Source of the DNA: Alphaproteobacteria bacterium
GTDB lineage: Bacteria; Pseudomonadota; Alphaproteobacteria; MPNO01
Assembly: GCA_964291675.2 (NCBI GenBank)
Contig: OZ219865.1
Span: 1,024,001 to 1,088,000, forward strand
Direction: 5' to 3'
Length of the DNA: 64,000 bases
Both the position numbers and the translations under genes were made by a program. The notes beneath the pieces are model-generated. The model worked only from the letters and a program-made list of their open reading frames with translations, was not told the origin of the DNA and did no database searches. Below are positions 22,126 to 24,442 of the stretch, piece after piece (the first letter of the stretch is position 1; each line of letters begins with the position of its first letter).

Positions 22126-22355
22126 CCCACCGCCTCACCACGTCATGGCCGGCCCCCGGATCAAGTCCACTGCTGTCCGGTTTGCCGTGAAACAGTTTGC
22201 CGTGAAACAGTTTCGGTGGGGGCGCGCGAGGGCCCCATCCAACGCCGGGAGGGAGTTGGCTGAGATCGCCGGAAGGGGGCGGCGAGACGAGCGGTGGACT
22301 TCCCCGATGTGGCCCGAAGCGGTCCCGCGCGGCGGTCCGGCGTTATGCGGGCCGG

Positions 22356-23605
22356 TCAGGTGGCCTTGGGTTCGGCGCGCCGGGGTTGGATGTAGCCGTA
22401 GCGGCGGAGCATTCGGATCCAGCGCGGGGCGTTGCGCTTGACCATCAGCGCGTCGTAGTCGGCGGTGCGGTCGTAGTAGGGCCTGCCGGTCTTGAGCACG
22501 ACATAAACGATGCGCAGCATCTTGTGTGCGCCGGCCACGATGGCGCGCTTGTATCCGCGCCGGGCGGCGAGCGCGCGGTGGTGGGCCTCGAACTGGCACC
22601 CCTTGGTTCGGGCCGCGCCGTGGGCACATTCGACGAGGCTGGCGCGCAGCGTCCTGGAGCCCCTTCGGGTGCGCGCGTTGCGGCGCTTTCCGCCGCTTTC
22701 GTTGTTGCCGGGGCAGAGCCCGGCCCAGGCGGCGAAGTGCTGCTTGGAGGCGAACGCCTCGATATCCGGGCCGATCTCGATCAGGATGGTCGAGGCGGCG
22801 ATGCGGTCGATGCCGGGGATGGTGGTCAGCAGGCGGAGCTGTTCCTGCCACGGCGTCATCTGCCGGTCGATCTTCTCGCCGTAGGACGCGATGCGCGCCT
22901 CGAGCGCGTCATGCTCGTCCAGCAGATCGCCGAGCATGAAGCGGTCGTTGTCGCCCAGGCTCAGGGAGAGCGCCTCGCCGAGCCCCTCCAGCTTGTTGGC
23001 GACGTGGCCGGTGAGCGAGGCGAGGATGACCGCGCGCGGCGTGGCTTGCGCCAGCCCGTCGAGGATCTTGCGGCCGTTGACGCCGAAGACGTCGGAGAGG
23101 ATGCCGCCGATGCGCAGGCCGGCGCGGTCGACGATCTTCTGCACCCGGTTGCGCACGGTCGAGCGCTGCCTGACCAGGGTACGCCGCTGGCGGCTCAGCG
23201 AGCGCAGCTCCCGGAACGGCTCGGGGGGAACATGGGAAGGCGTGCAGAGCCCGAACTGGCACACGCAGGCCAGCCACACGCTGTCGGCGACATCGGTCTT
23301 GCGCCCCTTCAATGCTTGACCTGACGCGCGTGCACCAGGATCGCTTCGATCCCCGCCGCCTCCACCGCCGCGAAGGGCGCCTGCCAGTAGATCCCGGTCC
23401 CTTCCATGACAGCGGCCTCGACGCGGCGACCGGTCAGCCAGGCGACCATCTCCGCCAGACCGCTCGGAAGCGAGCTGAAGCAGCGCGTCTCCACCACCGG
23501 CTCGCCCTCGCCCTCGCACAGGCGAACCGTCGCGGTGATCTCCATCTTGTGCACGTCCAGACCCGCCGCGCGCGGCCGCACGACGTGCAAGCCTTCCGTC
23601 TTCAT
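22356..23605 (-). pseudogene. IS110-family DEDD recombinase/transposase, frameshifted near 23313
   Basis: GLDVHK, VMEGTGIYW, then in another frame GRKTDVADSVWLA, TIPGID, WAGLCPGNNESGGK. Confidence 0.92.
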
Positions 23606-23609
23606 CGCT

Positions 23610-23953
23610 GTCCTCCTCGTTGCGCTCTCGCCACGGCGGCGTAGGATCGCGCCGTGGCATCGCCACGGTGGAGGCGGGGACAGCGGTCGGAAGGACACGC
23701 ACCCGTCGAGCGGGTGCGGTTCGATTTGCCGCGCGTCCACGGCCGCGGGCCGGGCACAGTACGGGGTGCGGAGCCGACCGCCGGAAGCAGTTTATATCTC
23801 GGGAACCACATCACCGATAAACGGAACGCTCACGCGTCGCCGCCTCCACCGTTCCCATCCTGCCACGGCAGACCCGCGCGACGATCGGCAAACCCTCAGC
23901 CGAACGCCCCGAGTTTCATGCCACGGGGTGGCTCAGCACCGCCGAGACCATGA
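23610..23953. ncRNA. putative IS110 bridge RNA region (transcribed strand undetermined)
   Basis: About 350-nt structured non-coding end upstream of the transposase; contains TTTGCCG (23725-23731, identical to the IS end at 22181) and GTTTATAT (23790-23797, identical to the target junction at 23956). Confidence 0.6.
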
Positions 23954-24152
23954 CGGTTTATATGAGCTGGACCGGGCGCAAAGCCTTGTTCCGGGCGGGA
24001 TATCGGCGCATCCGCCGGATCGGGACACGGATCGCCGCACGCCCGCACTTGCCGTCCCTGCCCCTGTGTTGTCACCCCGGCCGCGTTCCGGGCACCCACG
24101 GGCGGGGCGGGCCGCCCCCGGCTCCCGTACTCCTCCACCGCCACCCCCACCC

Positions 24153-24284
24153 CGTCATGGCCGGACTTGATCCGGCCATCCATGCGCAGACTTGATCCGC
24201 GCAACCACTGGCGCCACCGGTACAACGCCCGTCGGGAGGGGCGGCGGCGCCAGTGGATGCCCGGATCAAGTCCGGGCATGACGA
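24153..24284. repeat. inverted REP doublet (REPIN-like)
   Basis: CGTCATGGCCGGACTTGATCCGGCCATCCA ... TGGATGCCCGGATCAAGTCCGGGCATGACG. Confidence 0.85.
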
Positions 24285-24442
24285 TGGGGGGGGCATGGCG
24301 CTGGGCGGGAAACGCCGGGAGCGACGCGCGTCGAAGGCTAAACCGGACAGCAGTGGATCAAGTCCGGGGGTGACGCGTGGGAGGAGGCAGGGCGACGGGG
24401 CGGGCCGGCGGAGCGTTGTGCTCGCCGGGCGCGGGCCCGCGG

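Follow-up and report, generated by a model that had tools for sequence, protein, structure and literature searches.

An IS110-family element of an alphaproteobacterium with a predicted same-strand bridge RNA that matches the end of its host miniature transposable element

The DNA considered here is a stretch of 64,000 nucleotides (nt), referred to as the window (positions 1,024,001 to 1,088,000 of contig OZ219865.1, assembly GCA_964291675.2), from an alphaproteobacterium of the lineage MPNO01 with a genome of 4.8 Mb in 2 contigs and a G+C content of 69%. On the minus strand of the window, at 22178..23959, lies an insertion sequence (IS), which is very probably a slightly damaged copy of an IS110-family element with a bridge RNA, read from the same strand as the recombinase gene and programmed for the end of a MITE (miniature inverted-repeat transposable element). 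The family of the element, its boundaries, its site specificity, the covariation between guide and flank, the conserved fold of the RNA and the strand from which it is read are established. Beyond the logic of the sequences, the mechanism is taken from IS621, ISEc21 and later work: by analogy with these, the RNA would be made and bound by the recombinase, and a circle would be the intermediate of transposition. On this reading, the RNA core, read from 23847 down to 23670, folds into a target arm and a donor three-way junction; AUAUAAAC supplies the letters of the left flank and of a run of A residues (the A-run), and CGGCAAA those of the right IS end and the core; and the insertions are independent, RNA-guided, in a single orientation and without target duplication. 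This is a known mechanism in a new member of the IS110 family, with a modest architectural variant, and not a new mechanism.

Eight full copies of the IS are present in the genome, with a mutual identity of 99.6-100%, as well as empty sites. The hexamer CGGTTT is found at 22178-22183 and again at 23954-23959; an earlier note on this DNA, made from the letters alone, had placed these hexamers, and the two guide-like matches described below, at their correct coordinates. Unoccupied repeat ends (n=34) read ...CCGGTTTAT... without the IS, and because they hold the shared letters once, the boundaries of the element are exact to within the shared hexamer. Comparison of occupied with empty sites also shows that insertion of the IS produces no target duplication. 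The net length of the element is 1776 bp in the window and 1761 bp in the sister copies. The right IS end of the window copy comprises two tandem 15-bp units (22180..22209, minus strand), so that the donor site ...TTTCACGGCAAAC is present in duplicate; among the eight copies this one alone has the additional second unit, AAAC bounds each unit, and the duplication could have come from slippage or from recombination at a core-like site. The 5′ non-coding (left) end (23606..23953, minus strand) has 348 nt upstream of the recombinase gene, compared with 172 nt downstream of it, which is the arrangement of the IS110 group. The IS has no terminal inverted repeats. There is an inverted match of ~10 bp between GGCATGAAAC in the left end and GTTTCACGGC in the right end, which is imperfect and asymmetric (its distances from the two ends are about 36 and 4 bp). 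Thus, subterminal inverted repeats of the IS1111 type (7-17 bp near both ends, with the RNA downstream) are not found in this element.

The recombinase gene (22356..23605, minus strand) encodes 416 amino acids when intact. In the window copy, the loss of 1 nt between 23312 and 23313 disrupts the gene, a deletion common only to this copy and the one at G000:C1:543811-545573; the 416-amino-acid frame is open in six of the eight copies. Both halves of the broken gene are matched by PF01548 (DEDD_Tnp_IS110), and there is a match to PF02371 (Transposase_20) with E = 1.9e-23, which agrees with the identity first proposed for the element: it belongs to the IS110 family and has a DEDD/serine recombinase. 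Residues D17, E68, D105 and D108 are invariant across seven aligned relatives, and the serine motif GLCPGNNESGG is kept in them, with T replacing S in one. The nearest solved relatives are the transposases of ISCro4 and IS621, which are distant (E about 1e-14).

The IS is carried by a MITE (22167..24356, ~416 bp without the IS) which has terminal inverted repeats (TIRs) of 17-18 bp at 22167-22183 (continued at 23960) and 24339-24356. When the IS is removed, the restored end is an 18-bp inverted match to 24339-24356; this match had been noticed previously, and it is real, being the TIR of a MITE present in many copies. The MITE is itself bordered by a 7-bp target duplication, ATCAAGT (22160..22166, with the second copy at 24357-24363), which is the loop of a palindrome resembling repetitive extragenic palindromic (REP) sequences; the MITE interrupts this palindrome, which is 17 bp away from the crossover of the IS. 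Because the MITE lies in the palindrome loop with a 7-bp duplication around it, the three-tier nest put forward in the earlier note (REP-like palindrome, MITE, IS110 element) holds. This documents parasitism at two levels, of an IS110-type element on a MITE and of the MITE on a REP-like palindrome. Genome-wide there are 102 TIR-like 14-mers, forming 32 convergent pairs, of which 12 are in the 400-449 bp class, and the 7 nt flanking the MITE agree with at most one mismatch in 12 of 17 paired ends (five of them perfectly). In a search of this genome for an autonomous partner of the MITE, no longer TIR pair was found to enclose a transposase; one pair of 1566 bp contains spurious frames only. REP-like palindromes (of the type GCCCGGA-TCAAGT-CCGGGC) are very abundant genome-wide and also occur inside the MITE (window 24150-24290), and a 427-bp MITE query gives 440 BLAST pieces in the genome. 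At G000:C1:545568-546981, four tandem MITE units of ~330 bp adjoin one IS copy, each beginning with the end that the IS targets; the first unit (ATAT) alone is occupied, and the remaining units read ATCC.

All eight IS copies are found at an identical position and in an identical orientation, at the inner edge of one of the MITE's terminal repeats. On the transposase-sense strand this site reads ...CTCATAT-AAACCG-GACAGCAGTGG..., with a right flank, CCGGACAGCAGTGG, that is constant at the eight occupied sites and a left flank that occurs in three occupied variants, ATAT, ACAT and ATCT. The sequence ATATAAAC-CGGACAG is almost confined to this inner edge, and the accumulation of the IS at the MITE end can be explained by this sequence occurring almost only there. 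The other MITE end reads GGCTAAAC; a single end is used because that end fits the guide at only one of the four variable positions.

Two short segments of the non-coding end are the predicted guides. The sequence GTTTATAT occurs at 23790-23797 and again at the target junction (23956-23963); on the sense strand, this left target guide (minus strand) is AUAUAAAC, i.e., the left flank ATAT plus AAAC, ATATAAAC being the left flank plus the core in the transposase sense. Similarly, TTTGCCG occurs at 23725-23731 and at the donor end (22181-22187); on the sense strand, the left donor guide (minus strand) is CGGCAAA, i.e., the right IS end CGGC plus AAA. The non-coding end was shuffled 400 times; the restored target was then matched over 8 nt or more in 75 cases, and the right IS end over 7 nt or more in 104. 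By length alone, both guide matches are thus within chance, as the earlier note had itself cautioned. Being unremarkable in length, they had to be tested in relatives, and it is their covariation in those relatives, together with the occupancy of sites in this genome, that sets the two segments apart from chance.

Several other matches in the same region were rejected. A 9-nt match of GGTTTGCCG (23886-23894, reverse complement) to the right IS end (22179-22187) is meaningless: the stretch is changed in the relative L031 and absent in several others. GCTGTCC (23678-23684, reverse complement), complementary to the right flank GGACAGC, is not the right target guide; it is the 3′ strand of a helix (P1, below), relatives whose right flanks are unrelated keep it as well, and its lone change in L031 is offset on the 5′ strand. 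ACTGCT (23786-23791), which matches the flank, is the stem that closes the target arm and is constant in the clade.

Within this genome, 42 MITE ends were compared (8 occupied and 34 empty), which differ at the four variable guide positions. Every end without a mismatch to ATATAAAC is occupied (5/5), as are 3 of the 19 with one mismatch and none of the 18 with at least two (p = 6.6e-5 in Fisher's test). This relation between occupancy and guide match, with all eight copies at one terminal repeat, is what would be expected if a bridge RNA specifies the MITE end, as had been suggested.

The uniform position and orientation of the copies could also have arisen if a unit of MITE plus IS had been mobilised or duplicated, rather than the IS having inserted repeatedly. 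The window copy and the copy at C1:543811, which have the same 1-nt deletion and identical 160-bp MITE arms, fit such an origin, and unit duplication is probably true of this one pair only. As an account of all eight copies it is improbable: the MITE arms of 160 bp adjoining the copies are seven times more divergent than the IS interiors (4.05% compared with 0.58%), all three left-flank variants are occupied, and some of the IS-bearing MITEs are truncated or tandem. Because the arms diverge more than the interiors, the other copies are independent insertions.

Relatives of the element were collected by a protein-guided scan of species genomes, which confirmed 109 relatives, of which 80 stretches (75 loci; 59-100% identity) were kept, and by a scan of metagenomes, which gave 15 further loci (57-67% identity). 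Many of the relatives are present in multiple copies within their own genome. Each has, about 190 nt upstream of the start codon, a sense-strand segment of the form N4-AAAC (AATC in one relative), in which N4 equals the four bases to the left of the element. These four bases are ATAT in the element described here; ATCT in L031; GACA in L035 and in the CAXXVO and OY729512 elements; CGCT in L087; GACT in L089 and L107; TGAG in L093; CACG in L096; and AACC in L108. The covariation count comprised 75 distinct insertion events in 15 guide classes, after rows with an unparsed left flank, and events whose left neighbour is the right end of another copy, had been dropped. Beyond AAAC, a guide agrees with its cognate flank over 3.44 contiguous nt on average (63 of the 75 events reach 3 nt or more), compared with a mean of 0.36 nt for non-cognate pairs (of which 7 of 1010 reach 3 nt or more), and not one of 20000 permutations of the class labels reached the observed left-guide sum. 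Five unparsed relatives agree by eye: L077 and L086 (9 nt), L106 and L116 (8 nt) and L114 (7 nt). The donor guide tracks the right IS end in the relatives, a CAGCAA end going with a CAGCAAA guide and CGGC with CGGC, with one exception (L083, in which the IS end is GGTAA). Comparison of homologs had been proposed in the earlier note as a check: the first of its two segments changes with the left flank and the second with the IS end, which supports its reading of them as putative bridge-RNA guides for target and donor.

These data also bear on the suggestion that the matches are due to chance and that the recombinase protein itself recognises the terminal repeat of the MITE. Such lengths are found in 19-26% of shuffles, a meaningless match of 9 nt exists, and the right flank is invariant at all eight sites, as would suit recognition by a protein. 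That explanation is nevertheless very improbable, since the guide varies with the flank over 15 classes with no permutation as good, occupancy in this genome tracks single-base differences at the four variable guide positions, and relatives whose recombinases are 90-93% identical are inserted at unrelated sites that fit their own guides.

Two of the relatives deserve separate description. CAXXVO (loci L037-L081 of one metagenome-assembled genome) is a 92%-identical relative with 37 distinct insertion sites, which share about (G)ACAAAA on the left (~7 nt) and mostly have A at the first position on the right; across the 37 sites the right flank is otherwise almost free. CAXXVO represents a high-copy form of this system with promiscuous targeting. 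L032 (OZ220750) has a recombinase 100% identical to that of the intact copies described here and sits once outside the MITE; at its site the left guide fits over CTAAAC only, and AAAGGA (6 nt) fits UCCUUU in the 5′ strand of the target loop. It seems to be an off-target site that leans on this other guide.

An alignment of 25 distinct non-coding cores (A3) was used to derive the fold of the predicted bridge RNA, all of whose parts are on the minus strand. The conserved folded core of 178 nt (23670..23847) is closed by a long-range helix, P1 (23836-23847 with 23670-23681). The target-binding arm (23785..23831) begins with a closing stem of 5 bp (23827-23831 with 23785-23789), whose pairs are GU/GC, AU/GC, GC/UA/AU/CG, CG and GU, and contains a hairpin (23800..23816) of five pairs, with 100% of cells paired and two pairs showing compensatory change. 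The donor guide lies between helix H3 on its 5′ side (23734..23758; nine pairs, 98.7% of cells paired) and helix H4 on its 3′ side (23698..23718; compensatory change seen by eye, H4 being left out of the pair count as it is misaligned in A3). Both are within a second long-range helix, P2 (3′ strand 23683..23690, pairing with 23774-23781), which encloses the donor three-way junction and the outer pair of which is GC in 13 cases, UA in 3, CG in 3 and AU in 1. In total, 38 pairs were counted, with 94.7% of cells paired (41-55% in slid controls) and compensatory change at 16 pairs, which was equalled in 0 of 500 shuffles. The hairpin-forming segments that the earlier note had seen beside the two matches are therefore conserved helices, namely the target-loop hairpin and H3. 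A pairing of GGCGG with ACCGC in place of P2 was rejected, having no covariation and a constant partner column.

The conserved helices contain 90 G-U cells and 20 A-C cells, and because G-U cells outnumber A-C cells in the predicted pairs, the RNA is read from the sense strand. Some helix positions are mostly G-U (in 23, 21, 14 and 13 of the 25 sequences). Single-sequence folding z-scores are unremarkable (-2.2 for the sense and -3.4 for the antisense strand) and do not decide the strand. The earlier note had placed the guide RNA on the plus strand, transcribed divergently from the recombinase gene and with an architecture unlike that of IS621; the matches do read core-first on the plus strand, on which there is also a terminator-like hairpin with a T-run (23698-23718; one found compared with 0.2 expected). 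This is highly unlikely, as the core-first reading is simply the reverse complement of a canonical sense reading that gives the logic published for IS621, with guides carrying top-strand letters, as far as the available text of those papers goes; the conserved G-U positions would become C-A mismatches in an antisense transcript; and the "terminator" is the reverse complement of H4 and the A-run of the donor guide.

The hairpin of the target arm is enclosed by an internal loop of ~10 x 10 nt, whose 3′ strand, immediately before the closing stem and 3′ of the hairpin, is the left target guide. The 5′ strand of the loop, UUCCGUUUAU (23817..23826, minus strand), is the sole other hypervariable stretch of the RNA and a candidate for the right target guide. 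In some relatives this strand is complementary to the core and right flank over 6 nt (CCGCAU with ATGCGG in the L093 class, and GAAGGU with ACCTTC in L113); in the genome CBDCUM, GUCUU is complementary to AAGAC, and the right flanks begin with AGA at all four non-tandem sites. Taken together, the complementarity is weak: over 18 distinct 5′ strands, the sum of matches to the right flank is 69, compared with 60.3 +/- 2.8 after permutation, a value reached in 16 of 5000 permutations. In the element described here, UUCCGUUUAU can pair with ATAAAC(C)GGAA only via a mismatch or bulge; its pairing partner is probably the top strand, over the core and right flank. The chances are about even that the subfamily as a whole (recombinases of ~405-416 amino acids, from Alphaproteobacteria, Vicinamibacterales and other metagenome bins) has a bridge RNA with a target loop that is permuted in comparison with those of IS621 and ISEc21 and with a donor guide in a three-way junction. 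The suggestion that the architecture differs from that of IS621 survives in part: it does differ, not in the manner proposed but in that the order of the target guides appears to be swapped. No permuted IS110-type RNA was named in the literature searched, although supplements to the bridge-RNA and seekRNA papers (covariance models, ISfinder tables) may cover it.

The earlier note had taken the hexamer CGGTTT as the core, which the relatives do not bear out: in these, AA or AAA alone is common to flank and element. The hexamer results from the ACCG with which both the left end of this IS and the right flank of its target begin. In the OY761542 relatives (L093, L100-L105) the length of the A-run varies, with one A fewer at 4 of 7 parsed copies of the L093 class, and such variation occurs in the present genome too (see below); one possibility is that it comes from a heteroduplex at the core between an AA donor and an AAA target. 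Some relatives form head-to-tail tandems (L042, L047, L053, L054, L057 and L079 of CAXXVO; L095 and L098 of CBDCUM), in which a right end is joined via AAAC to the left end of the next copy, a natural stand-in for the circle junction. In this genome, a 149-bp fragment of the right IS end (L009, G000:C2:1939775-1939923) abuts a full copy, giving two right ends in tandem before the MITE flank. As a conjecture, the tandems, this fragment and the duplicated 15-bp donor site fit insertion at donor-like half sites.

A number of points, besides the unremarkable length of the two matches, weigh against the interpretation of the IS as an element with a same-strand bridge RNA programmed for the MITE end. 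The right target guide is weak in the element's own clade, with at most 4 contiguous nt in a fixed test. The right junction has an A-run of AAA in five of the eight copies and of AA in three, and the empty sites have AAA (window 22181-22183). As the window copy and C1:543811 have an identical 160-bp MITE arm and the common frameshift, they may represent one event, which would reduce the count of occupied perfect sites from 5/5 to 4/4. Of 16 occurrences of ATATAAAC in the genome, eight are guides inside the IS and five are occupied sites; the remaining three are perfect sites outside the MITE which are empty, so something beyond the 8 bases matters. A right donor guide was not found among the candidates compared with relatives: UGUCCUU (after H4), CUCCGCACCCCGUAC (before H3) and CCGUGG do not track the first bases of the left IS end, for which covariation has little power because that end varies little. 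Rfam has no matching family, giving two sub-threshold chance hits only. A scan for the E. coli-type sigma-70 consensus found no promoter in the left end, nor one at the natural right-end/left-end tandem junction of a relative. As to public data, 20 runs, mostly of sponge metagenomes, hold part of the stretch. Four were examined, one of which, a Hi-C run of raw reads, yielded no reads; no circle junction was found in the four, and their contigs contain the empty-site form and relatives only, which says nothing about whether the element is expressed or excised. The non-coding end is spanned by contigs of two RNA libraries, but neither transcription nor the ends or strand of an RNA can be read from contigs. 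Contig depth, a poor measure, sums in one RNA library to 78 and 44 over 23684-23815, compared with 28 over the gene.

Among known systems, the closest likeness is to IS621, with which the element shares a DEDD and serine recombinase, a guide RNA upstream of the gene, in the left end and on the sense strand (predicted here), a target loop and a donor site that carry the top-strand letters of left flank plus core and of right end plus core, respectively, the lack of target duplication, and a natural target that is a genomic repeat. It differs in that the recombinase of IS621 has 326-328 amino acids (416 here), its core is CT (an A-run, AA or AAA, here), and its donor guide is in a simple internal loop, whereas here it is in a three-way junction between two hairpins. 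According to the text available of PMC11208160 and PMC11208158, the left target guide (LTG) and left donor guide (LDG) of IS621 pair with the bottom strand and thus carry top-strand letters; the latter paper, again in part, gives the LTG as A50-U58 and the right target guide (RTG) as G77-G80, with LTG and LDG on the 5′ side of their loops. On that description, the LTG of IS621 precedes the RTG, whereas here the left target guide is 3′ of the hairpin and the weaker, candidate right-flank guide 5′ of it.

The seekRNAs of ISEc21 (IS110 type) and of the IS1111 type were described by Siddiquee et al. (2024; PMC11187229), of which excerpts were available. On the basis of these, ISEc21 likewise has an upstream non-coding RNA with one short match to each target strand, its top-strand match being 3′ of its bottom-strand match, an order which appears to be reversed here. 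The apparent order here is that given in the same excerpts for the IS1111-type seekRNAs, whose non-coding region is downstream of the gene. The short, imperfect and asymmetric inverted repeat of the present element is unlike the subterminal repeats of IS1111 elements. Durrant et al. mention multi-loop donor sites in many IS1111 elements, in the part of their text available.

With respect to targets, ISPpu9 and ISPpu10 of Pseudomonas putida (IS110 family) are described, in sources available in part, as found only in copies of one intergenic palindromic repeat, and for ISPpu10 a stem-loop of the target is given there as a second layer of specificity. Abstracts of later work on related elements speak of copy-out excision, recombination at half matches and a target stem-loop as a second gate. 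ISPpu9 and ISPpu10 sit directly in REP-type sequences, whereas here the REP-like palindrome is split by a MITE. As Partridge and Hall are said to have reported in 2003, IS4321 and IS5075 insert at a fixed position within the terminal inverted repeats of another transposon. These two belong to the IS1111 group of the wider IS110 family and have targets of the Tn21 family; here, the target is a non-coding MITE of 416 bp, one end of which fits the guide.

The MITE ends of this genome provide a natural specificity profile, i.e., 42 near-identical sites that differ at single bases of the guide match, for which library experiments are usually needed. The element also brings in a further recombinase subfamily, which is distant from IS621 and has an A-run as its core and a target loop that appears reordered; it may interest those who mine bridge recombinases for genome engineering. 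If the permuted order is true, guide order and the location of the RNA have evolved separately, and a different geometry of the synaptic complex is implied. The right-flank guide seems to be near-idle in some members, which would provide a natural series from strict to promiscuous targeting.

Outside the folded core, a hairpin of the form CCCCG...CGGGG with the loop GGCAUGAAAC is predicted at 23907-23930 on the minus strand (left-end positions ~30-53). Its loop motif, ATGAAA, is almost invariant among the relatives and repeats the right-end motif GTTTCACGGC imperfectly in inverted orientation; the hairpin may be either a protein site or a 5′ stem-loop belonging to the RNA.

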